Below, piece after piece: positions 2,819 to 46,709 of a DNA stretch of 64,000 bases. Source of the DNA: a virus; the IMG/VR virus record IMGVR_UViG_3300045988_159959; one strand, given 5' to 3'. The notes beneath the pieces were generated by a model. The model saw only the letters and a list, made by a program, of their open reading frames with translations. It made no database searches and was not told the DNA's origin. Made by a program: the position numbers and the translations under genes. Position 1 is the first letter of the stretch. Each line of letters opens with the position of its first letter.

Positions 2819-4030
2819 ATGTATTTAGTAGAACAACATATTATTTCTGTAAATGATAAGAGATACAAAGATTTAGATCGAATTTGCTTCTTATCCAAAA
2901 ACTTGTATAATGCAGCTTTGTATGAGATTAAACAAGAGTTTCTTCGTACAGGTAAATGGATAAGATCAGGAGAACTTAATAAGAAAATGGTAGCAGAAAA
3001 CAATATAGATCATAGAGCTATGAGTGGATCATCCTCTCAACAAGTTCTTATGTCTTTGGATAAAAATTTAAAGTCTTATTTTTCTGCTATTAAAGCATGG
3101 AAAAGAGATAACAAGAAATTTACCGGTTGTCCTAAGTTTCCAAAATACAAACACAAGACTAAAGGTAGGAATGTGTTCTCTTACTCTTATGCACAGTTTA
3201 AACACAGAGGTAATTATATTTTCTTTCCTAAGAAAGAAGGTCTGTCGCCTTTGAAAACAAATTGTAAAGAAGGTTCTGTCAAACAAGTTCGATTTGTTCC
3301 TAAATCAGATTGTTATATCATAGAGGTTGTGTATGAATCAAAAATAAAAGAACAACTTCCTGATAATAATAGAGTTATGTCTATTGATTTGGGTGTAAAT
3401 AATCTTGCTTCTATTGTTACTAATGTAAGTAAGAAAGCTATTTTGATTGATGGAAGAAAATTAAAATCCATTAATCAGTATTACAATAAAAAGAAATCAA
3501 AAATTCAACAACAACTAAAAAAGACAAACGGAAAAGAAAATTCGAGACGATTAATTTATCTAACAAGAAAAAGAAACAATAAAGTAAAAGATTATCTTCA
3601 TAAAGCAAGCAAAGAAATTATCAATATTTGCTTGGAAGATAATATATCAACATTGATAGTAGGACATAATGATGGATGGAAGCAAAGCACCAATCTTGGT
3701 AAAAGAAACAATCAGAATTTTGTAAGCATTCCGTTTGAAACGTTTATATCAATGTTAAAGTATAAATCAGAAAGACAAGGACTAAGATTTGTTGAAGTAA
3801 ACGAATCTCATACGTCAAAATGCAGTTCTTTTGATTTAGAATCTGTGGAACACCATGATACTTACGTTGGTAAAAGAATTAAGAGAGGACTTTTCAGAAC
3901 CAAAGATGGAATCTTACTTAATGCAGATATCAACGGAAGTTATAACATCATGAGAAAAGTAAAAGGGGATGCAGTAATGCCACCCTATACAGGGTTTGGG
4001 TATAACCCAGTTAAGAAATTTATTAACTAA
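2819..4030 (+). CDS. tnpB: TnpB-like RNA-guided endonuclease; subgroup without canonical RuvC-II Glu or zinc finger
   Basis: RuvC-I is SIDLGVNNLA and RuvC-III is LNADINGSYNI. The segment LIVGHNDGWKQSTNLGKRNNQNFVSIP...VNESHTSKCSS replaces the usual xxEDL...TSQxCxxCG. Confidence 0.8.
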   Translation: MYLVEQHIISVNDKRYKDLDRICFLSKNLYNAALYEIKQEFLRTGKWIRSGELNKKMVAENNIDHRAMSGSSSQQVLMSLDKNLKSYFSAIKAWKRDNKKFTGCPKFPKYKHKTKGRNVFSYSYAQFKHRGNYIFFPKKEGLSPLKTNCKEGSVKQVRFVPKSDCYIIEVVYESKIKEQLPDNNRVMSIDLGVNNLASIVTNVSKKAILIDGRKLKSINQYYNKKKSKIQQQLKKTNGKENSRRLIYLTRKRNNKVKDYLHKASKEIINICLEDNISTLIVGHNDGWKQSTNLGKRNNQNFVSIPFETFISMLKYKSERQGLRFVEVNESHTSKCSSFDLESVEHHDTYVGKRIKRGLFRTKDGILLNADINGSYNIMRKVKGDAVMPPYTGFGYNPVKKFIN

Positions 4031-4062
4031 TGTGTATCGGTGTAAACTGACGTACAATTACC
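3900..4062 (+). ncRNA. candidate omega (right-end) RNA of TnpB copy 1
   Basis: Placed by analogy: TnpB guide RNAs overlap the 3' end of tnpB and the right end. A local hairpin GGGTT..AACCC and the conserved right-end motif are present. Boundaries are approximate. Confidence 0.35.
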
Positions 4063-4089
4063 AGAAGAACGGGAGAAAACATGAAAGAA

Positions 4090-5283
4090 TTAACTGTTTA
4101 AAGCAAGTGATTGGACTAACTTCAAGTAACATGACAAAGTTAGGAATTTGACGGGTGATTCCAACGAATTTTCGTCAAATTCATAGTCGTTCAACCATTT
4201 TTCTAACGCTTCTATGTCAATATATTGCCATTTTTCTTGTTTTAAACATTCTGCAAGTGCCGGGAAAGTGTATTCTTTATCCTTATTGAACTTTTTGCAT
4301 ACTCTTTTAAGGTAATTTTTTCTGCTGGCATACCAAACATCACCCGCAGAAGACATGCAATAATAGGAATTGTCTTTTCTTTTTACTCCAAATCGTGTTG
4401 TAATAGGATAATACACCCTATCAGCAAGGAAAATGAAAGGAATATACCAAACACTATACAAAAAGGTTGCAAATCTGTTCAATTTTGCTTCTGGAACAAA
4501 TTTTTTGAGGGTTTTTCTGAATCCATAAGCAAAATACCAGTTGTTCGCACCTCTTTTTACCTTTACAGTGTATTTTAAATGATCGTTCCTATCCTTTACT
4601 CTATCCCAGGGTTTCAATTTTTCTGTGTTCATGGACGGAAGATAAGTCCAAAAATGCTTCAATGCACTGAAATAGGGATTGTAAATGGTGTGTCCATGAT
4701 CGGAAACATAAGAAAGGATGTCATGTAGTATTTCTTTTACCAAATTTCCTATTTCCTGGTCTTTGAAAACGTCTATCAAAAGAGAAAGGGAGGGTAACAA
4801 GTTCCAAATTTGATCTTGCGATACGAAAGGAGAAAAGCAGGGGTCTTCGTTTTCAAGTTCGATCCCATTGGAATAACCACTTTCTACTTTTATAGCATCA
4901 AAAAGACCACAGGAAGCGGATGAAATATCGTCTCGAAGGAAAAACCCTTTTTCGTGTACAAAATACACTTTTGGATTTTTTGATTTTTCATCTTCATAGG
5001 CACTTACCGATAGCCTTTGAATGGATTTCAGACACCAAAGTATTTTGTCGTTACATGATTTATCTCCTAACAACGATTCTATCAAAAGGTAGTGAAGATA
5101 TTCGGCCATGTTGATAGTTCCGTCATACCAATATAGAGATTTCTTACCCAGTCTTGCGCTTTTTGTCACTTTACTGGCAGGAATATTCGTTCCTCTGCAA
5201 GTAGTTTCTTCTGTAGCGACAATAAAGTCTTTGAAGAAGATGTCTTTTAGCTTTGAGTATTTTTCTTCGATTGTCATAAGCAT
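4090..5283 (-). CDS. hypothetical protein (397 aa) sandwiched between the two TnpB elements
   Basis: Long ATG ORF on the opposite strand to both tnpB genes. No motif recognised. Confidence 0.7.
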   Translation of the reverse strand: MLMTIEEKYSKLKDIFFKDFIVATEETTCRGTNIPASKVTKSARLGKKSLYWYDGTINMAEYLHYLLIESLLGDKSCNDKILWCLKSIQRLSVSAYEDEKSKNPKVYFVHEKGFFLRDDISSASCGLFDAIKVESGYSNGIELENEDPCFSPFVSQDQIWNLLPSLSLLIDVFKDQEIGNLVKEILHDILSYVSDHGHTIYNPYFSALKHFWTYLPSMNTEKLKPWDRVKDRNDHLKYTVKVKRGANNWYFAYGFRKTLKKFVPEAKLNRFATFLYSVWYIPFIFLADRVYYPITTRFGVKRKDNSYYCMSSAGDVWYASRKNYLKRVCKKFNKDKEYTFPALAECLKQEKWQYIDIEALEKWLNDYEFDENSLESPVKFLTLSCYLKLVQSLALNS

Positions 5284-5362
5284 ATATATTAATGTATAAA
5301 ACTATGTTTTAAAGCATAAAGTAAATAGAGTCTATTTTACTTTAATTTTGTATGTTTGCACT

Positions 5363-6565
5363 ATGATTAAATCGTTCAAATATAGATTAAATCCTACCAA
5401 AAGTCAAATCGTTCAAATGGAAAAGACTTTTGGATGTTGTCGTTATATCTATAATTGGGCACTTGATAGGAAAATAAAAGCATATCAAGAAAGTAAAAAG
5501 TCTCTATCTGCTATTGACTTATGTAAAGAACTTACTTTATTAAAACAAAAAGAAGATCATCTTTGGCTTAAAGAAGTTTCAAACGAATCTTTACAGCAAT
5601 CTATAAGATGTTTAGATTCTGCTTTTACGAAATTTTTTAGAGAACATACTGGCTTTCCAAAGTTCAAATCCAAGCATCATGATAAATCAACTTTCAAAAA
5701 TATCGGTTCTGTCAAGATTGATTTTGAAAACAGTAAAATCAAAATTCCGATTTTAGGCTGGGTAAAGTTTTATAAAAACCGTTCTTTTGAAGGGAAAATA
5801 GGAACAATAACGGTTTCAAAATCTTCTACTGGTAAATATTATGTAAGTGTATTGGTAAAAGATGGAAATTCTTTACCCGAAAAGAATCCTATTACACCTT
5901 CTACTTCTGTCGGGATAGATGTTGGTTTAAAAGATTTTGCTGTTTTATCAAATGGACAAGTTTTTCAAAATCCAAAATATCTTGAAAAATTTTCTAAAAG
6001 ATTAGCTTGTTTGCAAAGAAGACTTTCAAGAAAAAAGAAGGGGAGCAATAGATACAAAAAGGCAAAATTGGCTGTTACTATCTGCCATGAAAGAATAAGA
6101 AACCGTAGACAGGATTTTCTGCATAAAGTTTCTAAAAGAATAATCAGTGAGAACCAAACTGTTATTATTGAAGATTTGAATGTAGAAGGTATGTTGAAAA
6201 ATCATTGTCTTGCAAAGGGTATTTCTTCCGTTTCTTGGAATGAATTTTTTAGAATGTTGCAATACAAAGCAGAATGGAATGGAGTAAATCTTATTAGAAT
6301 AGGAAGATTTGAGCCTTCTTCAAAGATGTGCTCTTGTGGGTATATCAATAAAGATTTAAAACTTTCAGATAGAAGGTGGATATGTCCTTGTTGTGGTTCT
6401 GAAAATGATAGAGATTTACTTGCAGCGCAAAACATTAAAAGATTTGGCTTAGAAAAACAGAATCTTTTAAGCCAAGAAAATATTTCACCGGTGGTAAACC
6501 GGGCAGAGGACGCGGAGTTGCCGACATTGGTCGGAACAGTGAAACGTCAAATTATATCGGTGTAG
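5363..6565 (+). CDS. tnpB: TnpB RNA-guided endonuclease (canonical RuvC plus zinc finger)
   Basis: N-terminus MIKSFKYRLNPTKSQ; RuvC motifs GIDVGLKDFA, VIIEDLNVEGM and DRDLLAAQNI; zinc finger CSCG...CPCCG. The track start at 5348 is a TTG; the ATG at 5363 is preferred. Confidence 0.9.
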   Translation: MIKSFKYRLNPTKSQIVQMEKTFGCCRYIYNWALDRKIKAYQESKKSLSAIDLCKELTLLKQKEDHLWLKEVSNESLQQSIRCLDSAFTKFFREHTGFPKFKSKHHDKSTFKNIGSVKIDFENSKIKIPILGWVKFYKNRSFEGKIGTITVSKSSTGKYYVSVLVKDGNSLPEKNPITPSTSVGIDVGLKDFAVLSNGQVFQNPKYLEKFSKRLACLQRRLSRKKKGSNRYKKAKLAVTICHERIRNRRQDFLHKVSKRIISENQTVIIEDLNVEGMLKNHCLAKGISSVSWNEFFRMLQYKAEWNGVNLIRIGRFEPSSKMCSCGYINKDLKLSDRRWICPCCGSENDRDLLAAQNIKRFGLEKQNLLSQENISPVVNRAEDAELPTLVGTVKRQIISV

Positions 6566-6581
6566 CTGATATATGATTACC
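6440..6581 (+). ncRNA. candidate omega RNA of TnpB copy 2
   Basis: A GC-rich segment with hairpin CCGAC-attg-GTCGG sits in the 3' end of tnpB and runs into the conserved right-end motif. Boundaries are approximate. Confidence 0.4.
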
Positions 6582-6827
6582 TCCCCAAGCAAACATACCA
6601 AGTCCGATACCAATTACCCAAGAAATGATCCGTTGAACCCATTCCGAAGGTTCCACTTTGAATAGTTTCTTGATAAACTCTGTCACGACTGCTGTAACAC
6701 CCACTACGCCTGCAAAAGTAGCGAAATTTGCAGCGTAATCTACTGTTTCTTCTGGAAGTTCCCCTTGTGCAAAAATACAGGCGACATAGGAGAACATAAA
6801 AGCCAATGTCAATAAAATTCTATTCAT
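6552..6827 (-). CDS. small secreted/membrane protein whose 3' end is supplied by the IS right end
   Basis: Signal-like N-terminus MNRILLTLAFMFSYVACIFAQ and a hydrophobic C-terminal half. The last 8 codons (NHISATPI-stop) are the reverse complement of the TnpB-2 right-end motif. Confidence 0.55.
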   Translation of the reverse strand: MNRILLTLAFMFSYVACIFAQGELPEETVDYAANFATFAGVVGVTAVVTEFIKKLFKVEPSEWVQRIISWVIGIGLGMFAWGGNHISATPI

Positions 6828-6971
6828 GATAAAATATATTTTGAGTTATATAACTGCGTCAAAGATAAAAGAAAAGAGGCACTTTCACAAGCACCCCTTT
6901 CGATCATTCTGTTTATCGCAATGAGAATAATATTAGAGAAATGTATCATCAATTGTCAATTCATTTTTCTT

Positions 6972-7211
6972 TTACACCCCAACTTTTGCTCGGTAAGCCT
7001 GACGAAGATTTTCTACTACGATTTCCAAAGCATTTACATTCATGCTTTCGACAATCCTTACACCCGGCACAACCGTTCTCCAAATAGCATTTCCGTTATC
7101 ATCAATAGTTTGTTCTATTGTTGCATCCGGATAAATCTTTTGCAGTTTTACTTTAGCTGCTTCCAGTCTTTCTTGATAAGTTGCCATAGCTATATTCTTT
7201 TTTGCTTTCAA
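6972..7211 (-). CDS. hypothetical protein (79 aa)
   Basis: ATG ORF downstream of a minus-strand -7 box at 7374-7381. Confidence 0.5.
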   Translation of the reverse strand: MKAKKNIAMATYQERLEAAKVKLQKIYPDATIEQTIDDNGNAIWRTVVPGVRIVESMNVNALEIVVENLRQAYRAKVGV

Positions 7212-7264
7212 AAGTAAGCCCTCTCCTATTCAAAAACAAATACTTTAACAAATGTTAATAATGT

Positions 7265-7294
7265 TGTAACATTATACTGTTACATATATCTTTG
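7265..7294 (+). promoter_or_regulatory. Palindrome site 2 plus -7 box TATCTTTG
   Basis: tgtaacattatactgttaca (7265-7284) is followed by TATCTTTG (7287-7294). Confidence 0.5.
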
Positions 7295-7373
7295 CACCGA
7301 CATGAGAAAAGATGGAAAGAAGAAAGCAGATTAATTAAGTCGGTAATGGTGTACCTTGCAATAGATGGATTTG

Positions 7374-7381
7374 CAAAGATA
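7374..7381 (-). promoter_or_regulatory. -7 box TATCTTTG on the minus strand
   Basis: Inverted copy of the 7287-7294 box, oriented toward 6972..7211. Confidence 0.4.
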
Positions 7382-7478
7382 TGTACCCTCGACAATGAGA
7401 TAATCATTGTTCCTATCACAGTCATTCTTGTTAGTGTTATTTTGACACTAAAGGTTTTTGACTGAATTTCGACAAAAA

Positions 7479-7522
7479 TGTAACATTATATTTTGTCATG
7501 TAACATTAAAGTGTTACATTTG
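7479..7522 (+). promoter_or_regulatory. Tandem operator/promoter upstream of the HTH gene
   Basis: A degenerate palindrome tgtaacattatattttgtca (7479-7498) is immediately followed by the perfect tgtaacattaaagtgttaca (7499-7518). The latter runs into TTTG, giving TACATTTG (7515-7522), 33 nt before the ATG at 7555. Confidence 0.6.
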
Positions 7523-7554
7523 TGGCAGAATAAAGAAAAACGATTTTAAACTTA

Positions 7555-7755
7555 ATGCAAAAAAATGGATTAAAAATTAAAGAGATCATGCAAGAAAAAG
7601 GTATTTCCGTAGCCCAGGTGTCAGAAAAATTGGGAGTAACAAGGCAATCTCTTTATAGGTGTCTGAACGGAAATCCTACCATGAACCGGTTAAAGGAAAT
7701 AGCTGATATTCTTGATGTTTCTCCAAAAGACTTATTTGAAGATGAAAATAATTGA
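7555..7755 (+). CDS. XRE-family helix-turn-helix transcriptional regulator
   Basis: 66 aa. IKEIMQEKGISVAQVSEKLGVTRQSLYRCLNG is a typical HTH_3 motif. Confidence 0.85.
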   Translation: MQKNGLKIKEIMQEKGISVAQVSEKLGVTRQSLYRCLNGNPTMNRLKEIADILDVSPKDLFEDENN

Positions 7756-9391: not shown

Positions 9392-9556
9392 TAGACTGGA
9401 ATAAATTTTTGGGAAGATGCGGGATTGCGTTGTTATTCATATCGCTACCTGCAATTGGTTTTAAACTTTATTTTGGGTTGGAATGATCATTCTTGCTATT
9501 GAAATGATTGTCGTAGCTGTTATAGTAGATGAAAATTGTTAAAGTAACTGAACATC

Positions 9557-11513: not shown

Positions 11514-11894
11514 ATGAAGGAATTTGATTTAGAAAAAGCGAAAGTCGGACATCCGGTGTGCACAAGAGATGGTAAGGAAGCGAGAATCTTGTGTTTTGAT
11601 AGAATAGGACATCATCCTATTGTGGCCTTAGTAAAAGAGGCTGGTGATGAAACTATCTTTTTTTATAACAAGAAAGGAAGATTCAGTAACGATGGAAGGG
11701 AATGTATGTGTGATCTTTTCATGAAAGCTGTAAAACGAGAAGCATGGATAAACTTGTACAAAGATAAAGATGAACGACTATTCCCAGGACTTAATCTTTT
11801 TGAATCTGAAAAAGAAGCAAAGGATAGAATGGAATCAGGTGAAAAGTCAAGTCGTTTATATTACAAAACAGTAAAAATAGAATGGGAAGAATAA
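11514..11894 (+). CDS. hypothetical protein; N-terminus paralogous to 2298..2603
   Basis: Shares (K/E)F(N/D)LE(E/K)AK.G.PVCTRDG with the 2298..2603 product. Confidence 0.6.
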   Translation: MKEFDLEKAKVGHPVCTRDGKEARILCFDRIGHHPIVALVKEAGDETIFFYNKKGRFSNDGRECMCDLFMKAVKREAWINLYKDKDERLFPGLNLFESEKEAKDRMESGEKSSRLYYKTVKIEWEE

Positions 11895-12472: not shown

Positions 12473-12556
12473 AAAACGGCTTTCGCCTTCCCAAAATTAA
12501 GAACCTTGCTACATTTCTTAATTTGATTTGCAAACCGGGAAAGGCAAAGCCGTTTT
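12473..12556 (+). promoter_or_regulatory. 84-nt nested hairpin (terminator/attenuator-like) in the leader of the Bro-N gene
   Basis: Outer stem AAAACGGCTTTCGCCTTCCC / GGGAAAGGCAAAGCCGTTTT (19 bp, 2 bulges). Inner stem AAATTAAGAA / TTCTTAATTT. Followed by TTTTCTTTTTGT. Confidence 0.5.
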
Positions 12557-12591
12557 CTTTTTGTCTACAAACACAATTAAAATACAAAGTT

Positions 12592-13392
12592 ATGGGTGAA
12601 TTAAAGATTTTCAAAAATGAAGAATTTGGAGAAGTAAGAACAATGTTAGTAAATGGCGAACCTTACTTTGTGGGAAAAGATGTTGCATCTGTTTTGGGTT
12701 ATTCTAACACCAGAAACGCAATTTTACAACATGTTGATAGTGAGGACGCCTTAAAACAGGGCGTCCCTGATAATCAAGGTTTTACACAACAAACAACTTT
12801 GATAAACGAAAGTGGGCTTTACTCTTTAATTTTCGGCAGTAAATTAGAATCTGCAAAGAGTTTTAAAAGATGGGTAACTTCTGAAGTGTTGCCCGCTATT
12901 AGGAAAACCGGAAGCTACAATTTACCATCCTATCAAATAGAGAATCCTATTCAGCGTGCTGAAGCATGGATTCAAGAAGAAAAAGAAAGACAGGCTCTAA
13001 AAGAACAAGCTAAACAGCTTGCCGAAGAAAACAAAATTCTGGAGAACCAGATAGAAGAGGATGTACCTAAAGTAATTTTCGCAATGGCCGTAACCGAATC
13101 CAAGCGTTCTTGTCTTGTTGCGGAGCTTGCAAAGATCATCTGTCAAAACGGAATGGAGGTAGGGCAGAACCGGATGTTTAAATGGCTCCGCAAACGCGGA
13201 TATCTTGGAACAAAAGGAGAATACTACAATCAGCCTATGCAAAGATGGGTAGAAGCAGGAATGTTCGAAATCAAGAAAAGAACGATTACAAAACCGAACG
13301 GTGATCTGATTACAGTAAGTACACCTCTTGTAACCGGCAAAGGGCAAGTGTATCTCGTGAACAAGTTCCTGAAAGAATATGTCTCAAAATGA
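12592..13392 (+). CDS. Bro-N domain / KilA-C-type phage antirepressor-like protein
   Basis: FKNEEFGEVRTMLVNGEPYFVGKDVASVLGY...SGLYSLIF.SKLESAKSFKRWVTSEVLPAIRKTG is a Bro-N signature. The C-terminal half resembles KilA-C. The ATG at 12592 is preferred to the TTG track start at 12523. Confidence 0.8.
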   Translation: MGELKIFKNEEFGEVRTMLVNGEPYFVGKDVASVLGYSNTRNAILQHVDSEDALKQGVPDNQGFTQQTTLINESGLYSLIFGSKLESAKSFKRWVTSEVLPAIRKTGSYNLPSYQIENPIQRAEAWIQEEKERQALKEQAKQLAEENKILENQIEEDVPKVIFAMAVTESKRSCLVAELAKIICQNGMEVGQNRMFKWLRKRGYLGTKGEYYNQPMQRWVEAGMFEIKKRTITKPNGDLITVSTPLVTGKGQVYLVNKFLKEYVSK

Positions 13393-13567
13393 AAATGAAA
13401 AATCATCCAATTTGTCGCAATATAATGTTACATTTTAGTCTGAAAATACTGTTTGACATATTATATTGTGACAAATTCACAAAAAGTTTGTTACTTATAA
13501 ACACTTCTGCCCACTATTTCACCTAAATGTTAAAATCAAAAATCTATATTTTAGACCTTAAAACCAT

Positions 13568-13760
13568 CCTATTTTCAATCAAAAATATACAATAAGTAAA
13601 TTCATTTTCGCCTATAGGGGAAGTCGGAAATTCAAAATTTATAAATCATTGATATTTAATTGTTTAACTTAAAAACTTACAAAAACAGAACTTTTCCACC
13701 TTATTGTAAAAATATACAATAAGCTCTGTAGTCATTTTCTTGTCTCATTTTACCTCAAAT
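13568..13760 (+). repeat. about 190-bp non-coding repeat unit, copy A
   Basis: Contains CCTATTTTCA, TATACAATAAG twice (13586, 13713), ATTTTCGCCTATAG, and the hairpin CTTATTGTA-aaaata-TACAATAAG (13700-13723). Homologous to 15290-15475. Confidence 0.6.
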
Positions 13761-14078
13761 GTTAAAACTAATCTGAAAAAGTAAAAGTAAAGTGTTACAT
13801 TTTGATGTGAAAACAGTTAAGGAAGGTAAAATAGGAGAAATTGTACTTTCAGAGGCTAAAAATTCATTCATTTAGGCGTAATTTGTAACAATCCAGTTGT
13901 GTCCATAGTAGGAGATTTACTCTATTTTGTAAGAATAAACCGTTACATTTTAGTCTGTTTTTGGACTTTTTGTTAGTATCATTTTAATAGGAACAATCTT
14001 TATTTACTTTACAAATAGTCAAAATTCAAAAACAATCGAAAAATAGGGTATGTGAGACCCATCAAAAATCACATAAGT

Positions 14079-14135
14079 CTGAAAATCAATAATTTAAATT
14101 TTTCAATTTTCGTCCACTCCCTTATAGCGAAAAAA
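14079..14135 (-). repeat. partial inverted copy (C) of the same repeat core
   Basis: The reverse complement TTTTTCGCTATAAGGGAGTGGACGAAAATTGAAAAATTTAAATTATTGATTTTCAG aligns at an eye estimate of about 75-80 percent to ATTTTCGCCTATAGTGCGTACTCGAAAATTTGATTCATTTAAAATATTGATTTTCAG in copy B. Confidence 0.5.
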
Positions 14136-14244
14136 GTTTTGAAAACCCGATTTTATTATTATCATTTTGATAGGGAGATTAATTTATTCCATATCATTTT
14201 GTCAAAATAGGGAGATTTTATGTATTGAGCGAAGCGATTATCCC

Positions 14245-14283
14245 TCGGAAGGGATGAAGAATCCGCAAGGATTCCCCTTCCGA
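14245..14283 (+). other. long coaxial hairpin capped by a GCAA (GNRA) tetraloop
   Basis: TCGGAAGGG-atgaa-GAATCC-GCAA-GGATTC-CCCTTCCGA: 9-bp plus 6-bp stems. GC-rich within AT-rich, ORF-free DNA. Confidence 0.5.
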
Positions 14284-15130
14284 AAGAAAATAGGATAGAC
14301 CAACCCACCAAAAATCGCCAATAGAAGTCCAAATCCATATTCTCGTACATACCAACAAAGAAAAACAGGAAAGTCAAACCCATAGGAAAGAAAAGAAATG
14401 TCCTACCCCTTTCTCAATAAAAAAACCAGCTAAAAAGAAAAAAGGAAGGAAGCCTCATATAAAAGAGATTTTCAAAATTTCTATATATGAGAGTAGTGTA
14501 ATTGAAGACAGTATCTATTGTATAGGAAAATAAATACCCTCTCTACCAAACTTCTTTTTGATAATATTTGTACAATATGTTGGTTTTCAAGAAGATAAAT
14601 ATAAACATATCTACAAAAATTTCGCCAGTAGGACACTATTTAGAGGCTTTGTCTTGTGGCATGAAAGAAATAAATGATCATTTGTAAAAACCGCTAATAA
14701 GAGTGTGTTTGAGAATTTTCTATACATAAGATATTGAAAACCAAGAGATTGAAAATATTTCTTTCTGTAAGAAATCCCTATATGGAGAGCAAAATAAAAC
14801 TTTTTCTTGTGACGTATTGGGCACGCCATCTCAATATGGAGAGTCCTCAAACAGTCCCTAAAGATACCCTACCAAAACAAAATACCCCGGATAACCTACT
14901 TTTCCGCTTATTTCTGACACTTTCTTTCCAAAATGATATACCACTACCGCACAGATAAAAACAAAGCTTTAAAAACGATTATTTGAAATCATAGGATCAG
15001 AGCATAGGAACCGGGAAAGGACAGCAACCACTATTCCTATTACATGGAGAAAAGAAAACGATCAGCGAACAGGAACAGAAATATGCGCGGGAAATAGAAG
15101 CGTTATACCGGACAGATCTCTACAAAGAAA

Positions 15131-15166
15131 TTTCTTATATATATAATATATTATATATATAAGAAA
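15131..15166. repeat. 36-bp perfect AT-rich palindrome
   Basis: TTTCTTATATATATAATA|TATTATATATATAAGAAA has 18-bp arms with no spacer or mismatch. Confidence 0.8.
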
Positions 15167-15289
15167 AATGAACAAATGAAGGGAATAACAAGGCAATGAA
15201 GAACAACGACACACGAAGGGTTGCACCCTATCAATGTGATAATAGAAGGGTATTTGTGTCAAATTTGAAAGTTTTTGAACTGAATTTTG

Positions 15290-15475
15290 CCTATTTTCAT
15301 TGTAAAAAATACAATAAGTCAAACTATTTTCGCCTATAGTGCGTACTCGAAAATTTGATTCATTTAAAATATTGATTTTCAGTTAATTAGCTAAATCTGA
15401 TTCGAAAACTCGATTTTTTAGAGTGATCAAAAAATTATACAATAAGTCATTTTGATAATTTTAGTGTCAAAAATG
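15290..15475 (+). repeat. about 190-bp non-coding repeat unit, copy B
   Basis: Same block order as copy A: CCTATTTTCA, (A)TACAATAAG at 15310 and 15436, ATTTTCGCCTATAG at 15326. Confidence 0.6.
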
Positions 15476-15533
15476 AAAGATTTTGAGGTTTTACAGGTGA
15501 AAATAGGTGCATTCCGGTATTAGTATAGCTCTC

Positions 15534-15580
15534 AAAATTGGGTCGTATATGGTGCGTTACAGCGCCGTAGACCCAATTTT
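15534..15580. other. 11-bp-stem hairpin
   Basis: AAAATTGGGTC ..25 nt.. GACCCAATTTT, perfect arms. Confidence 0.55.
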
Positions 15581-16090
15581 AAAAACAATAGATATATTAT
15601 CCCGGGAAGAAAGAAAGTAATATATAGAAGGCTAAAATAGCTGTAGAAGATGATCAACAGCTACAGGGAATAGAAGTGAAAAGTAGGAAGCAAACAAAAC
15701 TACAAACACTCAGAAAAGTGCATAAATAAAGGGGAGGTGAAGAATAAAGAGGGTAAAAGGGAAATGGTTTTGGCGTGTGGTAGTGGCAGGTGCGGCGAGA
15801 TAATCACATACACTATCATTATAAAACGCTTTTTATTCTTATTATCACGTCCAGGCATTACAAAAACAGTCAAATCACACACAATTCAAAAACTCTTTTT
15901 CTACTTACATACATATAACATTCTACTTCTTCCCTATTATGTTATATAGCTATCGTTTCCTATTCTTTTTTCTTTTATTTTGATAGGTATTTGTGTAATT
16001 TATTGATATTCAAATAATTGTGTATCATGCTATTTAGATTCATTCTAAATAAGGTTTTATTTATTGGTACGGGTTATTCCTATTTGTTTT

Positions 16091-16141
16091 AAATTAAAGG
16101 TTCCGCACGCGCTAAGTGCGCTTTCGCTCCGCCTTTAATTT
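16091..16141. other. nested GC-rich hairpin directly upstream of the 93-bp repeat
   Basis: Outer arms AAATTAAAGG / CCTTTAATTT. Inner hairpin CGCAC-gcgctaa-GTGCG. Confidence 0.55.
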
Positions 16142-16143
16142 GA

Positions 16144-16236
16144 TATAAGTAACAAACAAAACAAAGAAAAACAATCAAATTAACCTTTCTTAACTATAAA
16201 ACCTTTGGTATGTAACATTAAAGTGTTACATTTGTA
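16144..16236 (+). repeat. 93-bp perfect direct repeat, copy 1 (promoter module)
   Basis: Identical to 17515-17607 when read by eye. Begins TATAAGTAACAAAC and ends TGTAACATTAAAGTGTTACATTTGTA. Confidence 0.85.
16211..16234 (+). promoter_or_regulatory. Palindrome plus -7 box (TGTAACAttaaagTGTTACATTTG)
   Basis: Perfect 20-bp palindrome. Its 3' half forms TACATTTG (16227-16234), 46 nt before the ATG at 16280. Confidence 0.6.
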
Positions 16237-16279
16237 ATGTGATAAAGAAATAGTAATAACAACATAAACAATAAAGATC

Positions 16280-17086
16280 ATGAAAGCAACGAGAATCAAC
16301 GCAAACCAGGCACAGGAATTAATCAATAACGTAAAGTCTGTTATTCGTTTAGGCGGTTTTGAAACTGGATTAAGAACTAATCTAAATAAGGCAATTTCCT
16401 ATTGCAAAGGCGCATATTCAATGACTTATTCAAGTCCTGAATATTTATTTAAAAAAGAATATCAAATAGAGACAAAAGTACGTTTTACCAACTTTTTGGG
16501 CGAAAGTTATGAAATTTGGTTTGAAGAATCTAAAATCTATACTTTCGAGAACGAAGGCGAAAAATTTCTAATCGTTACCGGTTTGGGCTATTGTAACGTT
16601 TATCAGTTAATCCAAAAAGACGAAAACGAAAGTTTCGACGATCAGCCGGCAATAACTGATAACGGAGATAGTAAAGAAACTTCTATTTCCTACGAAGGCA
16701 AAACGATTAACATTAATTGCTTGCTATCAAATACGAAGGCTTGCGAATGGGATAAAAAATACCCGGAAAGTCACAATCACTATATAGTAACAGTGAGTTA
16801 TGAAGGCAAAAGATTATCTTTTAATTGGTTTGATAGCTTTTATAATTTTCGTTATGGTATCGTTGATAAAAACAGAAAAGAGATGATAGAAATGTTTTAT
16901 TCGTTTTTACAGGATATTATTTACAAAACGAATATTCGGATAAAAAACGACTTTTGTAAAGAAGAGGGAAATGTACCTACTTTATGGAGTGCATTATGCA
17001 AGCATGAAAATAAATATAATAGAGTTTTTGATAACGTAGATATTTACGAACTTGTAAATTATTTGCAAGAAACATTTGAATTATAA
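16280..17086 (+). CDS. hypothetical protein (268 aa)
   Basis: ATG ORF directly downstream of the promoter module. Confidence 0.65.
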   Translation: MKATRINANQAQELINNVKSVIRLGGFETGLRTNLNKAISYCKGAYSMTYSSPEYLFKKEYQIETKVRFTNFLGESYEIWFEESKIYTFENEGEKFLIVTGLGYCNVYQLIQKDENESFDDQPAITDNGDSKETSISYEGKTININCLLSNTKACEWDKKYPESHNHYIVTVSYEGKRLSFNWFDSFYNFRYGIVDKNRKEMIEMFYSFLQDIIYKTNIRIKNDFCKEEGNVPTLWSALCKHENKYNRVFDNVDIYELVNYLQETFEL

Positions 17087-17347: not shown

Positions 17348-17554
17348 ATGAAACTGAAAGTAATACAAACAATATTAGAAGGCTTGAAATTAGTATTTAT
17401 TTCCTTCGTTATCTCTTTGATTTTCTTGTATGTAGATAATAGCAACGTTTTACACGTTATCCTATCCATTCCAATGGTGATTATTTTGTTTTATATTCTG
17501 GTTGAAAAATCATTTATAAGTAACAAACAAAACAAAGAAAAACAATCAAATTAA
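17348..17554 (+). CDS. small membrane protein (68 aa)
   Basis: Two hydrophobic segments. The last 13 codons lie inside copy 2 of the 93-bp repeat. Confidence 0.5.
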   Translation: MKLKVIQTILEGLKLVFISFVISLIFLYVDNSNVLHVILSIPMVIILFYILVEKSFISNKQNKEKQSN

Positions 17555-17607
17555 CCTTTCTTAACTATAAAACCTTTGGTATGTAACATTAAAGTGTTAC
17601 ATTTGTA
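17515..17607 (+). repeat. 93-bp perfect direct repeat, copy 2
   Basis: Identical to 16144-16236. Confidence 0.85.
17582..17605 (+). promoter_or_regulatory. Palindrome plus -7 box
   Basis: TGTAACAttaaagTGTTACATTTG, upstream of the ATG at 17685. Confidence 0.6.
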
Positions 17608-17684
17608 TCAAAGAAAAACAAGTAATAACAGTAACTAAACTAATTAAACAAGGTGCGCAAACCTTGACAAAACGCAATCAAATT

Positions 17685-23192: not shown

Positions 23193-23344
23193 CCCAGATA
23201 CATCTCTCCATGAAGTTCGGGATATTTGGAATCACGCATAATGTTCCGTACCTTTGTCTTTGTCCAAGCAGGAATAGCATTCTTTACCGGGATGATTACA
23301 GGTTTCTTTTTGGGAGTTTCAACATTCTTCTTTTCGTGAAGCAT
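23189..23344 (-). CDS. small basic ORF (51 aa, not in the track)
   Basis: Read by hand: MLHEKKNVETPKKKPVIIPVKNAIPAWTKTKVRNIMRDSKYPELHGEMYLG. Convergent with 22677..23192. Confidence 0.3.
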   Translation of the reverse strand: MLHEKKNVETPKKKPVIIPVKNAIPAWTKTKVRNIMRDSKYPELHGEMYLG

Positions 23345-23610
23345 TACTATTAGTTTTTAAAGACGAAAGGGCTAAGAACCGATTTTTACAGATTGTGTTC
23401 AAAGCCCTTTCTTGATTAACGTAATTAATTAACAACGAGATTGTTAATGTGCCTACTCTGTTAAGGATTTTCGGCATCCTCCTTTATTAAAAACTTTAGA
23501 TTTATATAGAGGAATATAGAATAGATTTTATTATTTCATGATCTCACCTCCTTTCTTTAATAGGGTTTGCAACTCGATTGACTATGTGAATAATTATACA
23601 GGAAAATCAG

Positions 23611-41679: not shown

Positions 41680-42210
41680 TTATTTCTCTTTTATGATTAA
41701 AAATGTGTTGATCTCACCTTCTACCAGATTGTCCAGAAATTCTTCCGGTGTCACCTTCGGAACCAACCCTGTCAATTTCTTGTCCTTTGACTGTAAAGCC
41801 CAATAGAGACTGTCTATTTCCGCCAAATGCTTTTTCTTTTTGACCAAATCCTTTTGCATGGCATGTAGTTCCGGGTTGATTGTCAAAATATCGTCCAAAG
41901 AACTTTCCGTAAGTTTCACAAGTCCTATGTCTTCTACCTTCACCTTTCCACCGTTTACAATAGATTCACGTCTTATCTGTGTGGCAAGTTGCGCTTTATA
42001 GACATTAAATTCCACTTTTGCAGATTCATATTCCGATTCTGCTTGTGACCTAAGAAGCCCTACTTTATTCAGTAAGACGGAACAAGTAGCGATTTCTCCA
42101 TATAAATTAGCGTGATCTATGGAAGTTACTGCGTCCATGTCCAATTCGTTTTTCAAATCATTGGAGAGTAAAACTATTGCTTTATCTCCTATATTTCTTA
42201 CCAATTTCAT
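41680..42210 (-). CDS. hypothetical protein (176 aa) between SSB and DnaE
   Basis: ATG ORF overlapping the dnaE stop. Helical and charged. Confidence 0.6.
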   Translation of the reverse strand: MKLVRNIGDKAIVLLSNDLKNELDMDAVTSIDHANLYGEIATCSVLLNKVGLLRSQAESEYESAKVEFNVYKAQLATQIRRESIVNGGKVKVEDIGLVKLTESSLDDILTINPELHAMQKDLVKKKKHLAEIDSLYWALQSKDKKLTGLVPKVTPEEFLDNLVEGEINTFLIIKEK

Positions 42211-45101
42211 ACCCCAAGTTTTATGAATTTACTATTACTGTTTACTTGCAATACATATTCTTCTTTGAACTTGTCAAAGTTAGCCTTTCCGCTTAATAGG
42301 AGAAGGTTTTTCTTTGTGGACTGAAAGAACTCTGCGTTTTCCTCATAATCGTCCGGGAAAATGACTACACGAAGGAACTTGTAATTGCTTTCAAGCAAAA
42401 GATTGGCAAACCGTCCTTTCTTTCCTTCTCTTTCTTCCACTTCTAAAACGTAACCGCCTACCATAACCATTTCATAGGTTGATCCGTCATAGTTCTGCAA
42501 ATCTTCCACATTGTAGAAAACCCCATTTTTGACTTTTGGTTTTAAATATTCTCTTACCAGCTCTTCATAGTCGAAGAAAGCAAATCCGGACTTGTTCTTT
42601 TGCTGCAATAGCCACCACCAATCCTTACCAATCTTTTTCTTTTCAAAGGCAAGAAAATATTCATCCTTTTCTTTATCAATTTTGATCTTATTCTTTTCTC
42701 GGCACTTTCCAAGCATGAACTCCCTTGCAGAAAAGATATTGGAAAATTCCCTTGTTTCATCCATCATATCGAACGCACCAGAATAGATAAGATTTTCAAT
42801 AACGGATTTATTCACTGCCGATCCTTTGAACGTATGACGATCAATAAATTCAGCCAAAGAAAAATACTCCCCATTTTTAGAGCGTTCTTCCATAATCTGA
42901 TTCTGTGCCTTTTCTCCTACTTGTTTTGTTGCATTGATTGCCCAATAGATACTATTATCTTTTTTGTCAGCCACAATGTTTATATCAGACTTGTTGATAT
43001 TTACAGGTTTGATTTCGATCCCTTCTGTCTGCTGCATTTCATTGACGTATTGAGGAAAGTCATCTTCACTTGCACGGGACAGAGCAACCGACCAAAATTC
43101 CAAAGGATAATGCACTTTCAGCCATAAAGAATTGTAAGCATTAATAGCGTAACTTGCTGAATGACTGTTACATGTTATAATCCCTTGATCTGTACAATAA
43201 TTATGATTCGGATCATCTATTTCCACATCGTAAACATTTTCTATTTTATCCAGTTCAATACTTACTATTTTCGATAAAGCAGATGGATATCCTTTCTCAC
43301 CTCTTTTCATCCTGCCAAATTCACGATAATGAATTTTCTTGTGACAAGAAGGACAGATAGCAATAAGATTTTCATCTTCATTATTTCTCCTGTTCCCGTC
43401 TCTATGGTGAATTTCCAATCTGCCTTCTTTCCCACAATTTTTACAAACTCCAAATCCACCATTTTTCTCTCTGAAAGATCCAAACTTAGAAGATTCTCCA
43501 TTTGTTTTTACAAAACCCATGTGTCCTTTTTTAGAGTTTAAAGATTCCGGATTGTATTTACTCCAATTTTTACCCCTCATATCGGTAAAATTGTATCGCT
43601 GACTATCCGTTTTCTCATACGGCATTTGCACATACAGATTATCTTCTCCTACTCTCAAATCTTTGCACATAACTTTACCTCTTTGAGTAGGGAATTTATG
43701 GTTGTCTGTTACAGATACAAAACGACCGTCCTCTAAAGTTATTTTATAAGTTTGCCTTACCCCAGCAAACCTAATATCTTTAATTTTTCGATCTCTTATA
43801 CGTCCATCTTCACACATAGTAAGACAAGTTCCATAGCCAACTCTCAAATATTTACTCCTAAGAGGAGTCCAATTGTTTGCTTTTGCAAATGCAAGATCGT
43901 TCTTAATCAAATACATTTCTTCGATAGTAGGTTGTCTTTTGTTTTTGGGACAAGAGTTTCTTAAAATTCTGTAACTGCCTGATATACAGCGGTTAAAAGC
44001 ATACAAACCAAATTTTTCCATCTGTTTCCAGAGTGCTTCTGCGCTTTCTTTCGTTACCCCTTTTGAAGCAAATCTCTTTACATACCCATCCACAAATTTA
44101 GGATGAATTTTCTCTACTTTGTCCTTCTTTTTTTTTGCAATTGCAGCACGAGCAACATCTGCTTCTTCTTCCGAAAAACCAGCAAGAACTTGCACCATTT
44201 TAACGATCTGTTCTTGGTATACTTGCACAGAATAAGTATTTTTCAGAATTTCTTCCGCTCCAATAGGGTATTCCGGCTCTTTTTCTCCGTTTTTCAAAGC
44301 AATGTAGTCCATGTGAAAACCATTTTCCATTGGCCCGGGACGGAACAAGGAAAGTGCTGCCACTACATCATCCATGTTTTTAGGCTTCAATTTTTGAGTA
44401 TAAGCGCACAATCCTTTTGCTGAAAACTGAAATATATCGCTAAGCCAACCGTTTGCAAAATATCTGTAAACCTCTGGATCATCATATTCTATATCAGAAT
44501 AGAGATTGATTTTCCTACCCGTATTCTTTTCAATCAGATTCAGAATATCAGTGAATTTGTCCAATTGCTCAATACCAAGAATATCTTCTTTCAAAAAACC
44601 GGCTTCGTCCATTTCTCCACCTTCCCATTCACTGACAATTAAATCGCCTGATTTTCTAACCGGACACCACTCATACATTGTCTTTTCTTTTGGAAAGATC
44701 ATCATAGCACAAGCATGAATAGAAGCTGCCTTTTGTTGTCCAAGAAGAAGAAAAACAATATTCATCATTTCTGGATATTTATTCAGAAATTGATTTACTT
44801 CTGACTTCTTGCAAGCAAGTTTCAAAAAATCTTCTTCTGTCTTTACATCTTCTATCATTTTAGTAAGCCTCCTAAGAGTAGGAATTGAGACTCCATAGAG
44901 CTTTCCTACATCGTTTATAGCCTGTTTTATCTGTAAAGTGGTATATGTACCCACAGAACAAACTTGCGAAGCTCCAAAACGATTTTCCATATATTGTTTT
45001 ACTGCCGGTCGGTATTCTCCCGGCACATCTGTATCAATGTCTAACGCTCCCCCTTGTCCGAAAACAAGGGGGAAATTGATCGGGGAGCGATCCCGGTACA
45101 A
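42207..45101 (-). CDS. dnaE: DNA polymerase III alpha (DnaE-type), C-terminal fragment (palm catalytic Asp onward), containing an intein
   Basis: GGALDIDTDVPG..R..V..Y....FG...VCSVGTYTT aligns with DnaE PDFDVDF...YG...V..I.TFGT; later FN(R)|intein|SHSASYA. The track start is a TTG; homology begins near codon 18. There is no credible independent start. Confidence 0.85.
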   Translation of the reverse strand: MYRDRSPINFPLVFGQGGALDIDTDVPGEYRPAVKQYMENRFGASQVCSVGTYTTLQIKQAINDVGKLYGVSIPTLRRLTKMIEDVKTEEDFLKLACKKSEVNQFLNKYPEMMNIVFLLLGQQKAASIHACAMMIFPKEKTMYEWCPVRKSGDLIVSEWEGGEMDEAGFLKEDILGIEQLDKFTDILNLIEKNTGRKINLYSDIEYDDPEVYRYFANGWLSDIFQFSAKGLCAYTQKLKPKNMDDVVAALSLFRPGPMENGFHMDYIALKNGEKEPEYPIGAEEILKNTYSVQVYQEQIVKMVQVLAGFSEEEADVARAAIAKKKKDKVEKIHPKFVDGYVKRFASKGVTKESAEALWKQMEKFGLYAFNRCISGSYRILRNSCPKNKRQPTIEEMYLIKNDLAFAKANNWTPLRSKYLRVGYGTCLTMCEDGRIRDRKIKDIRFAGVRQTYKITLEDGRFVSVTDNHKFPTQRGKVMCKDLRVGEDNLYVQMPYEKTDSQRYNFTDMRGKNWSKYNPESLNSKKGHMGFVKTNGESSKFGSFREKNGGFGVCKNCGKEGRLEIHHRDGNRRNNEDENLIAICPSCHKKIHYREFGRMKRGEKGYPSALSKIVSIELDKIENVYDVEIDDPNHNYCTDQGIITCNSHSASYAINAYNSLWLKVHYPLEFWSVALSRASEDDFPQYVNEMQQTEGIEIKPVNINKSDINIVADKKDNSIYWAINATKQVGEKAQNQIMEERSKNGEYFSLAEFIDRHTFKGSAVNKSVIENLIYSGAFDMMDETREFSNIFSAREFMLGKCREKNKIKIDKEKDEYFLAFEKKKIGKDWWWLLQQKNKSGFAFFDYEELVREYLKPKVKNGVFYNVEDLQNYDGSTYEMVMVGGYVLEVEEREGKKGRFANLLLESNYKFLRVVIFPDDYEENAEFFQSTKKNLLLLSGKANFDKFKEEYVLQVNSNSKFIKLGV
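43167..43988 (-). mobile_element. 274-aa intein with an HNH endonuclease domain in DnaE
   Basis: Inserted between YAFNR and SHSASYA. Starts CISGSY. Block B is SVTDNHKF. HNH domain CKNCGKEGRLEIHHRDGNRRNN..NLIAICPSCHKKIH. Ends VYDVEIDD..GIITCN|S. Confidence 0.8.
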
Positions 45102-46400: not shown

Positions 46401-46709
46401 TATTCACAAACAACATAATGTTTATTCAACATAAGTCAGGATAAAAATCCTGTTAGTACCCATCGCCAATGTTATCAAAGGTTTGTTGTAAGCAACACTG
46501 TTTCCCAAATACAAAAACTGTTTAATCACTTACCTTAGAACTACAGACTTGGGCAAATATCCGTAGGTAACTATCTATTCTTTAATAACGTAGTTCTTGT
46601 TTCAGAACTTAGGCTAATAACCAGATCCGATTTTACGGATGTATTAAAATGGGATAATGATTTTATCTGATTTTAATACTATTTGCGGTTATATTCTTGT
46701 TACTTGATA
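46401..46709 (-). ncRNA. candidate IscB omega RNA (HEARO-type) or other structured RNA upstream of iscB
   Basis: 309 nt without an ORF, directly 5' of iscB, where IscB guide RNAs are encoded. Minus-strand hairpins: ATCCG-taaaat-CGGAT, GTTCT-gaaaca-AGAAC, CAGGAT-tttt-ATCCTG. It may extend 5' to about 46829. Confidence 0.5.

Follow-up and report, generated by a model that had tools for sequence, protein, structure and literature searches.

What keeps almost three kilobases (kb) of DNA free of protein genes in the genome of a gut phage? The question is raised by the IMG/VR virus record IMGVR_UViG_3300045988_159959, of which a stretch of 64,000 nucleotides (nt), hereafter the window, was analysed. 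The source is an uncultured phage of the human gut with a genome of ~104 kb, and between the gene of an Ant/Bro-N protein upstream and that of a 268-amino-acid (aa) protein it carries an island free of open reading frames (ORFs), which makes up ~3% of the genome and sits within a rightward block of mostly small, unannotated genes at 2.8-23.2 kb (Table 1). An earlier description of this DNA, made from its letters and here called the sequence-only reading, had presented the island as dense in repeats and hairpins and had proposed as roles a replication origin, a cluster of non-coding RNAs (ncRNAs) or one large structured RNA, or a packaging or terminal region. Comparison with relatives indicates that the island is real and kept by purifying selection, and is not decaying DNA. 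We interpret it as a few clustered non-coding transcription units, and neither as one RNA nor as inert DNA; in our main reading, to which we give a tentative probability of roughly 45%, it would be an early, rightward-transcribed ncRNA locus with embedded DNA-level sites. Among the proposed roles the cluster of ncRNAs is the best supported, by hairpins that preserve their structure, by G-U pairs compatible with the + strand only, and by conserved blocks that start at -7-box-like motifs.

We found that the island contains only short ORFs on both strands, as had been claimed: with translation table 11 the longest measure 86, 79, 74, 73 and 70 aa, and none is kept in relatives. Reassigning TAG, TGA or TAA, one at a time, opened nothing longer than 137 codons and no gene, and the six-frame translation of the island gave 0 matches to PHROG families. 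The accompanying statement that genes elsewhere are separated by 0-100 nt was overstated, since a list of ORFs of at least 100 aa leaves several other gaps of ~0.25-1.1 kb (e.g. 6566-7711 and 23193-23610), but the island is by far the largest. The same locus is present in more than 60 gut-metagenome contigs of ~95-108 kb from IMG/VR and ENA, in which the island is syntenic; the nearest GenBank record, MT835500.1, is an unannotated faecal scaffold with 88% identity across half of the island. These relatives form subgroup 1a and a more diverged subgroup 1b, in which the Ant gene is only ~74% identical. Across 13 distinct full-length relatives the island measures 2459-3271 nt with stop-free runs of at most 146 codons, and with subgroup 1b, where it spans ~2.2-2.6 kb, the overall range is 2.2-3.3 kb, ORF-free throughout. 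None of the ATG-initiated ORFs of at least 25 aa (n = 10) is intact in more than 2 of ~30 relatives, and the 73-aa ORF (14162-14383, - strand), which is membrane-protein-like, has suffered a frameshift, a truncation or the loss of its start in several of them.

Next to this turnover of reading frames, blocks of the island are 90-96% identical among relatives (Table 1). In the flanking genes the identity is 0.88-0.98 at first and second codon positions and 0.67-0.91, typically 0.79, at third positions, so that the blocks match the former and clearly exceed the latter. This excess over third codon positions, 90-96% versus ~79%, is why we do not regard the island as decayed DNA. Indel-rich spacers lie between the blocks, and one of them (14430-14830) falls to 17-60% identity with many gaps. 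Furthermore, subgroup 1b keeps, in the same order, repeat module A, the conserved blocks B1 and B2, the AT palindrome, hairpin S4, part of the body of candidate ncRNA-2 and the downstream promoter element. That the island consists of decaying gene remnants, or hides coding capacity through recoding or micro-ORFs, would suit the short ORFs on both strands and the resemblance of the 73-aa ORF to a small membrane protein. This explanation is largely refuted, and we leave it barely any probability: no ORF is maintained, with frameshifts, lost starts and non-synonymous turnover; neither stop reassignment nor the PHROG scan yields a gene; the blocks are more conserved than synonymous sites; and both the ORF-free state and the size of the island are preserved in two diverged subgroups. 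The intact protein genes in relatives that would have made the island a decayed pseudogene are not seen, and its blocks are under purifying selection.

We then considered the hairpins, several of which, including one with a GNRA loop, had been recognised in the sequence-only reading and are indeed present (S1, S2, S4 and S5; Table 1). Alignment of the relatives showed that these four predicted hairpins hold their structure while the sequence turns over, and that the wobble pairs of S2, S4 and S5 are compatible only with RNA folding of the + strand. In S4, double compensatory changes affect 8 of 17 pairs, with up to five pair types at a pair, and nine cells of the alignment are U-G (C-A on the other strand) versus one of the opposite kind; the hairpin scores z = -4.1 to -4.5 on the + strand, with further arm variants in subgroup 1b. 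Compensatory changes are seen in 5 of the 22 pairs of S5, which also has three G-U pairs, invariant on the + strand. The outer stem of its counterpart in subgroup 1b, CCAAAG.../...CTTTGG, is unrelated in sequence and encloses another GC hairpin, and the two-tier fold is retained (z = -4.2). The basal stem of S2 is invariant, its loop is seen only as GCAA, GTAA or GTGA, and one-sided changes retain pairing via G-U on the + strand; in subgroup 1b the same basal stem carries a swapped apical hairpin, GGCGGC-TTTA-GCCGAC. S1 folds with z = -5 to -6, and at its position subgroup 1b has a 17-bp stem whose arms are of unrelated sequence, with a similar loop of 35 nt (z = -4.45); it is likely a 3' hairpin, a processing site or an operator of the upstream operon. 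Both S4 and S5 have A-runs before the stem and U-runs (3-5 nt, partly paired) after it, and we infer that they are terminators or 3'-end hairpins of rightward transcripts. Two further predictions were dropped: the outer stem GCGATT/AATCGC that alifold placed around S2 is not conserved in subgroup 1b, and a module hairpin, ATTTTCG...CGGAAAT, is no better than shuffles in either subgroup.

When the folding is averaged over the island, the term hairpin-dense stands only in part. Windows of 100 nt with z < -2.5 are modestly more frequent in the island than in its flanks (12-17% versus 7-10%), whereas the mean z equals that of the flanks (-0.8 versus -0.7). The structure is concentrated in 5-6 discrete hairpins, and the sequence between them is exceptionally unstructured. 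Segments of 230-500 nt fold no better than shuffles on either strand (z = -0.5 to -2.1). A scan for known large ncRNAs with the Rfam 15 covariance models, which cover GOLLD, ROOL, HEARO, group I and II introns, riboswitches, 6S and transfer-messenger RNA (tmRNA) among other families, gave no match of the island at the gathering threshold, and ARAGORN called 0 tRNA or tmRNA genes in the whole window. Consequently, the proposal of one large structured RNA finds no support: its long segments are like shuffles, the Rfam scan is empty and the conserved cores are unstructured.

The two blocks with the best conservation, B1 and B2, are predicted to be largely single-stranded. B1, which forms candidate ncRNA-1, is 94-98% identical in 50 loci, and the unit as a whole folds with z = -2.9 versus shuffles, whereas its tail (window 14300-14399) folds at only -1.4 kcal/mol. 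The block starts exactly at a CATTTT-type box; in subgroup 1b a TCATTTT box (TCATTTTG, in some members TCATTTTT) abuts the conserved ATGTATTGAGCG directly downstream. The core of B2 is ~100% identical in subgroup 1b despite the divergence of the Ant gene, an 18-mer taken from it is present in 54 viral contigs, and the alifold energy of the block is -1.5. Candidate ncRNA-2 scores z = -3.5, and its fold is equalled by 0 of 200 shuffles. CATTTT(G/A) boxes at 13944, 13981, 14164 and 14196/14216 are conserved in both subgroups, and another lies at 15975. The motif ATTTTGATAGG, which heads candidate ncRNA-2, was tried as a general promoter and rejected as island-specific; because of this specificity, and as it has no copies upstream of protein genes, it is not validated as a promoter.

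We favour the ncRNA locus because of the strand-specific, structure-preserving hairpins together with an anatomy in which conserved blocks follow boxes. On this reading, transcripts would start at the -7-box-like CATTTT(G/A) motifs. One of them, ncRNA-1, would run from ~14215 to at least 14400 and consist of a 5' stem-loop followed by a long A/C-rich tail without structure, which may extend through B2; the other, ncRNA-2, would run from ~15990 to 16147. Transcripts would end or be processed at S4 (15581) and S5 (16147); the downstream operon would therefore be insulated and driven by its own operator-controlled promoter (16204-16234). The near-invariant single-stranded cores, namely the B1 tail and the B2 core, would be the working parts and could either base-pair or titrate an RNA-binding factor of the host or the phage. 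DNA-level sites, the palindrome S3 and the phased 18-mer pairs, would be interspersed among these elements.

Several observations weigh against this reading. The blocks with the strongest conservation show neither predicted structure nor covariation, and a reading of them as DNA-binding sites therefore fits equally well. The CATTTT(G/A) boxes match the Bacteroidota -7 box at only 7/8 positions, and ATTTTGATAGG, as noted, occurs upstream of no protein gene. A simple scan for consensus terminators called 0 canonical ones and thus neither S4 nor S5, and the U-runs of these two hairpins are short and partly within the stems. The S1 hairpin shows both G-U and A-C states in subgroup 1a, so that no strand is indicated. 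DNA-level templated correction can also yield compensatory changes in inverted repeats. No Rfam family matches the island even at E up to 10, where only three chance-level matches of small nucleolar RNA type appear. Finally, the exact 9-mer GTTACATTT, copies of which lie in the island of the source phage, is missing from the islands of subgroup 1b.

The same hairpins could instead belong to a device that blocks or times transcription between two early operons and whose RNA has no function in trans. Here hairpins acting as terminators or RNase III-type sites, together with C-rich, rut-like RNA, would block transcription in the early phase for as long as neither an antiterminator nor the operator-controlled promoter at 16.2 kb has taken over, and the lambda tR1/nin region and the early RNase III sites of T7 are precedents for such barriers or timing devices. 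The position of S1, 17 nt past the Ant stop codon, suits this explanation, as do S4 and S5, + strand hairpins that lie with their A- and U-runs immediately before a conserved promoter/operator, and the long unstructured stretches with C in excess of G. A barrier, however, needs neither 2.2-3.3 kb nor stretches of 37-200 nt that are 94-100% conserved, rut sites being little sequence-specific, and it leaves the palindrome and the 18-mer pairs unexplained. We therefore consider it improbable as the purpose of the island.

Upon examining the repeats, we observe three copies of a diverged repeat unit, modules A, B and C, in agreement with the sequence-only reading (Table 1). Module B is present in some relatives and absent in others, and is not a precise mobile element, because the deletions in loci L006, L008 and L011 end at different points. 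The 18-mer AAAAATATACAATAAGTA has four copies, which are confined to the island and arranged as two pairs in modules A and B; the second copy of module A lies within the palindrome CTTATTGTA-N6-TACAATAAG (13700-13723). Subgroup 1b keeps the pair at 127 nt, and there the core of the 18-mer also occurs just downstream of S5, heading the promoter element. An identical pair, spaced 129 nt apart, is found in a second group of gut phages (46 loci), in non-coding DNA beside early genes; the early proteins of this group are 25-36% identical to those of the source phage, and there is otherwise no DNA similarity. Because motif and phasing are conserved across two phage groups, the pair is probably bound by a protein that reads DNA, which may be a regulator, a polymerase-associated protein or an initiator. 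The contigs of the second group (L058-L175) measure 82-160 kb and carry the pair in a sparsely coding stretch by an early operon (e.g. L077, 9068-9215), followed by a highly conserved non-coding segment of ~250 nt and a hairpin at 9436-9471 (L077). A tandem-repeat search for CRISPR-like or ToxI-like arrays gave trivial short tandem repeats only. For the template and variable repeats (TR/VR) of a diversity-generating retroelement (DGR), the island was compared along diagonals with the entire window, differences at adenines being tolerated, and this gave only a 130-nt promoter repeat. An IS605/TnpB-end or omega-RNA remnant was also rejected, as the island has no similarity to the tnpB loci.

The 36-bp AT palindrome that had been reported is present as S3, and its evolution differs from that of the hairpins. 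In ~50 loci we observe 11 sequence variants of 32-38 nt, all of them perfect palindromes, which differ by symmetric double changes only; in contrast to S4 and S5, intermediates with a G-T pair or a mismatch are not seen. S3 is nearly the sole perfect palindrome with arms of at least 12 nt across 530 kb of related sequence. Because it is always perfect and shows no wobble intermediates, it appears to be constrained as DNA.

These DNA-level elements carry the main rival explanation, a replication origin or another cis-acting DNA control region, which may coexist with transcription. Under this model an initiator would bind the phased 18-mers and AAAATAGG, the AT palindrome would extrude or melt as an unwinding element, and local promoters would activate the origin, as they do at the primary origin of T7 or at oriF/oriG of T4. 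The island-only 18-mer pairs at 127 and 128 nt, with the 129-nt pair in a far phage group, suggest a phased protein-binding architecture; AAAATAGG is enriched in the island, which holds 7 of its 18 copies in the window; the palindrome is perfect in 11 of 11 variants and thus DNA-constrained; the GC content falls to 25-28% at 13.4-14.2 kb; and the phage encodes DnaB, a primase, a DnaC-like module, SbcCD and UvsX, with no initiator recognised among its products. On the other hand, DnaA boxes (TTWTNCACA) number 10 in the window versus 11 expected and 0 in the island. A GC-skew check gave no switch at the island: the skew tracks gene orientation, switching near 2.5 and 23.3 kb, and the island is only a plateau. 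The replication genes are at least 10 kb off and on the other strand, and no initiator or DNA-binding domain is detectable in the proteins encoded next to the island. Additionally, the 18-mers are not tandem iterons, being two pairs at ~128 nt spacing, an extent of 2.2-3.3 kb with RNA-type hairpins exceeds an origin's needs, and the second phage group, which has the 18-mer pair, lacks the palindrome. The proposal of an origin therefore keeps its DNA-level palindrome and repeated 18-mers and lacks DnaA boxes, a skew switch and an adjacent initiator, and we regard it as a serious candidate that is nonetheless rather unlikely.

The origin and the ncRNA locus are not mutually exclusive. A more speculative combination, which we think unlikely, is that the island encodes a new class of early phage ncRNA, whose near-invariant, unstructured A/C-rich segments (the B1 tail and the B2 core) would sponge or redirect an RNA-binding factor or RNA of a Bacteroidota host, coupled to a DNA switch made of the palindrome and the 18-mers, for example a transcription-primed origin of cruciform type or a target of programmed SbcCD cleavage.

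Promoter-like half-sites without genes had also been described, and the three copies of GTTACATTT in the island bear this out. In the window this 9-mer has 11 copies versus 1.1 expected. The island copies are degenerate versions of a TGTAACA-N7-TGTTACATTTG element found upstream of genes elsewhere, and in subgroup 1b a TTACATTTTG box persists where the third site lies. Elsewhere GTTACATTT is half of TGTAACA-N7-TGTTACA palindromes, which overlap -7 boxes and therefore mark operator-controlled promoters. Seven gene-proximal promoters carry this palindrome over the -7 box TACATTTG (2703, 7484, 7513, 16225, 17596, 26103 and 35045), a distribution that suggests one phage-encoded dimeric regulator for a promoter class on both strands. 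The promoter/operator of the gene downstream of the island belongs to a 130-nt element with two copies 1.37 kb apart, on either side of the 268-aa gene. At least six near-full-length contigs of relatives begin or end within a 130-nt copy, so that public contigs of this phage group labelled complete may break at the repeat or lack the 1.2-1.4-kb segment between its copies.

The contig ends bear on the remaining proposal, that the island is a DNA-entry stop signal, a packaging site or a genome terminus, on the model of T5, whose untranslated repeat region holds the injection stop signal (iss). The island closely fits the description of the T5 iss region, its position is 10-13 kb past a strand switch and behind a block of small early genes, and several contigs of relatives end nearby. 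However, the eight DnaA boxes typical of T5 iss regions are absent, the contigs end in the 130-nt copies (16144-16289 and 17515-17651) or at the palindrome and not at one nucleotide, and the island is mid-contig in many contigs, with the terminase gene 36 kb away. In three relatives the contig breaks in or beside the AT palindrome. The clustering of ends is accounted for by the 130-nt repeat and the palindrome, which break assemblies as ordinary breakpoints, and the packaging or terminal role finds no support; we hold it to be very improbable.

A host or prophage origin of the island was considered and rejected. A 22-mer of B1 searched against 185,579 species-representative genomes gave one match, within a Clostridium ORF that is otherwise dissimilar, which we take as a chance match and not as evidence for a host. 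The match corresponds to the S2 hairpin region and lies at 5682-5703 of a contig of Clostridium sp. MCC353 (L176), in a 978-aa ORF of a GC-rich genome. No integrase gene was seen in the window.

Table 1. Features of the ORF-free island and its borders (window positions; a point marks features without a strand).
Feature	Position	Strand	Description
ORF-free island	13393-16279	.	between the Ant/Bro-N gene (12523-13392) and the 268-aa gene (16280-17086)
S1	13409-13477	+	18-20-bp inverted repeat with 33-nt spacer, 17 nt past the Ant stop; encloses a GTTACATTT site
GTTACATTT promoter/operator-like half-sites	13427-13435, 13794-13802, 13942-13950	+	no downstream genes
Conserved blocks	13433-13512, 13593-13672, 13913-14032, 14193-14392, 14833-14900, 15993-16072, 16153-16232		90-96% identity
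Repeat module A	13568-13760	+	18-mer AAAAATATACAATAAGTA at 13581-13598 and 13708-13723, spacing 127 nt
Repeat module C	~14060-14215	-	inverted, degenerate copy of the module
B1, candidate ncRNA-1	14191-14400	+	-7-box-like TCATTTTG / AGATTTTA; conserved 5' stem-loop (S2); ~110-nt unstructured A/C-rich tail
S2	14245-14283	+	basal 9-bp stem TCGGAAGGG/CCCTTCCGA; apical stem-loop AATCC-GCAA-GGATT
Indel-rich spacers	14430-14830, 15030-15130, 15830-15950		between conserved blocks
B2	14833-14990	+	conserved unstructured A/C-rich block; near-invariant 37-nt core ATATGGAGAGTCCTCAAACAGTCCCTAAAGATACCCT at 14834-14870
S3, AT palindrome	15131-15166	.	perfect, 36 bp
Repeat module B	15290-15480	+	18-mer pair at ~15303-15318 and 15431-15446, 128 nt apart
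S4	15535-15581	+	A-run, hairpin, U-run; resembles an intrinsic terminator of rightward transcripts
Candidate ncRNA-2	15966-16147	+	ATTTTGATAGG motif at 15977-15987; body 15993-16072 (94-96% identical); S5 at 16085-16147
S5	16085-16147	+	two-tier, terminator-like hairpin
Promoter/operator of the next gene	16144-16289	+	TTTG-19 nt-TACATTTG with TGTAACA-N7-TGTTACA; duplicate at 17515-17651

The host of the phage is probably a member of the Bacteroidota, because Shine-Dalgarno matches, weak ones included, precede only 9 of 36 genes, the promoters near genes fit TTTG-19 nt-TAnnTTTG, and the closest isolated phages (~34% helicase identity) infect Chryseobacterium and Bacteroides. The proteins next to the island (268, 328 and 679 aa, and others) gave nothing informative in Pfam, PHROG, NCBIfam and PDB sequence searches. 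A 126-aa early protein (11514-11894, + strand) belongs to Pfam PF26890 (Phage_HP1_YO09), a family that the local Pfam scan had missed; it has hundreds of homologues, one of them on a 331-kb contig of a Bacteroidales metagenome-assembled genome, and homologues 33-37% identical in the second phage group. More distant phages with a PF26890 early protein have neither the island nor any of its motifs. The window showed no gene for a phage RNA polymerase, and a 1460-aa protein considered as one was ruled out, being a tail-fibre-like adhesin.

The replication module (DnaB, primase, split PolA, SbcCD, UvsX and ligase) lies further right on the opposite strand. Within it, an IscB-like gene (RRXRR and HNH domains, 409 aa) with a HEARO/omega RNA (RF02033, 97.9 bits, 46452-46661) occupies 45171-46661 (- strand) and is flanked by DNA polymerase A fragments at 42207-45101 and 46710-48263, so that the polymerase gene appears to be split by the element; the larger fragment also has an HNH insert at about aa 535-615. 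The gene of the large terminase subunit (929 aa, 52459-55248, - strand) contains an intein with Hint and LAGLIDADG homing-endonuclease domains and adjoins DnaB and primase, not a structural module. In the early region two TnpB genes are predicted from their domains (OrfB_IS605 and Cas12f-like TNB) at 2819-4030 and 5348-6565, both on the + strand; behind the second gene lies the 1.1-kb gap 6566-7711, in which operator-like GTTACATTT/TGTAACA sites face each other at 7476-7521. A DUF805b RNA motif (RF02914, 53.6 bits, 23450-23484, - strand) is found where the rightward and leftward gene blocks converge.

Bacteroidota gut phages are abundant and almost wholly uncharacterised in their regulation. 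All relatives seen keep the island non-coding, and the constraint on parts of it equals that on first and second codon positions in protein genes. It offers concrete elements: two candidate ncRNAs with predicted ends, four hairpins, a 37-nt core, a palindrome and an 18-mer pair. If the DNA elements mark an origin, they would define the origin type of this phage lineage.

Upon comparison with known systems, we find that no element of the island matches a described family. With GOLLD, ROOL, HEARO/omega RNA and OLE the island shares the occurrence of kilobase-scale non-coding DNA in a phage, but it matches none of their Rfam models and its long segments fold like shuffles. The primary origin of T7 and oriF/oriG of T4 resemble it in having tandem promoter-like motifs by very AT-rich DNA in an intergenic, early part of the genome, whereas the island is ten times larger than these origins, gives no signal in the skew and has an 18-mer that is not validated as a promoter. 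T5 and its relatives have a non-coding region (iss/untranslated repeat region) of 1.2-1.7-kb scale in the early part of the genome; that region lies within a long terminal repeat and is defined by DnaA boxes in paired inverted repeats, boxes which the island does not have, it has no sequence similarity to the island, and its host belongs to a different phylum. Homologues of T5 A1/A2 did not turn up in general PHROG scans, no search aimed at A1/A2 having been made.

The closest likeness is to Cellulophaga phage phi14:2, a Bacteroidota phage of ~100 kb with a kilobase-scale ORF-free stretch (~1.7 kb, g004-g006 junctions) among rightward early genes. In this phage, two long intergenic regions among the rightward early genes are transcribed early as long ncRNAs, at levels above most genes (bioRxiv 10.1101/2020.03.07.982082); Bacteroidota phages of ~100 kb therefore do make abundant early ncRNAs from such gaps. 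Transcription of the phi14:2 stretch is rightward, high and seen from the earliest time point, whereas that of the island is only inferred. The two share no sequence or motif similarity, and phi14:2 belongs to the crAss-like phages and has a virion RNA polymerase, whereas crAss markers are absent from the window of the source phage. The phi14:2 region also scores in part as tmRNA, a signal that the island lacks: in phi14:2 (L180, NC_021806) positions 4031-4502 (+ strand), inside the early long-ncRNA region, match the Rfam tmRNA model with 46 bits (gathering threshold 47; E = 2.6e-16), and part of that long ncRNA may be a phage-encoded tmRNA-like gene. Overall, conserved non-coding islands in the early region of large phages are already known from T5 and phi14:2, neither with a settled mechanism, and what is new here is the comparative anatomy, the always-perfect palindrome, the 18-mer pair shared across phage groups and the near-invariant unstructured cores. 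If its RNAs are made, the island would be the second case, after phi14:2, of abundant early long ncRNAs in Bacteroidota phages, and the first with a comparative anatomy.

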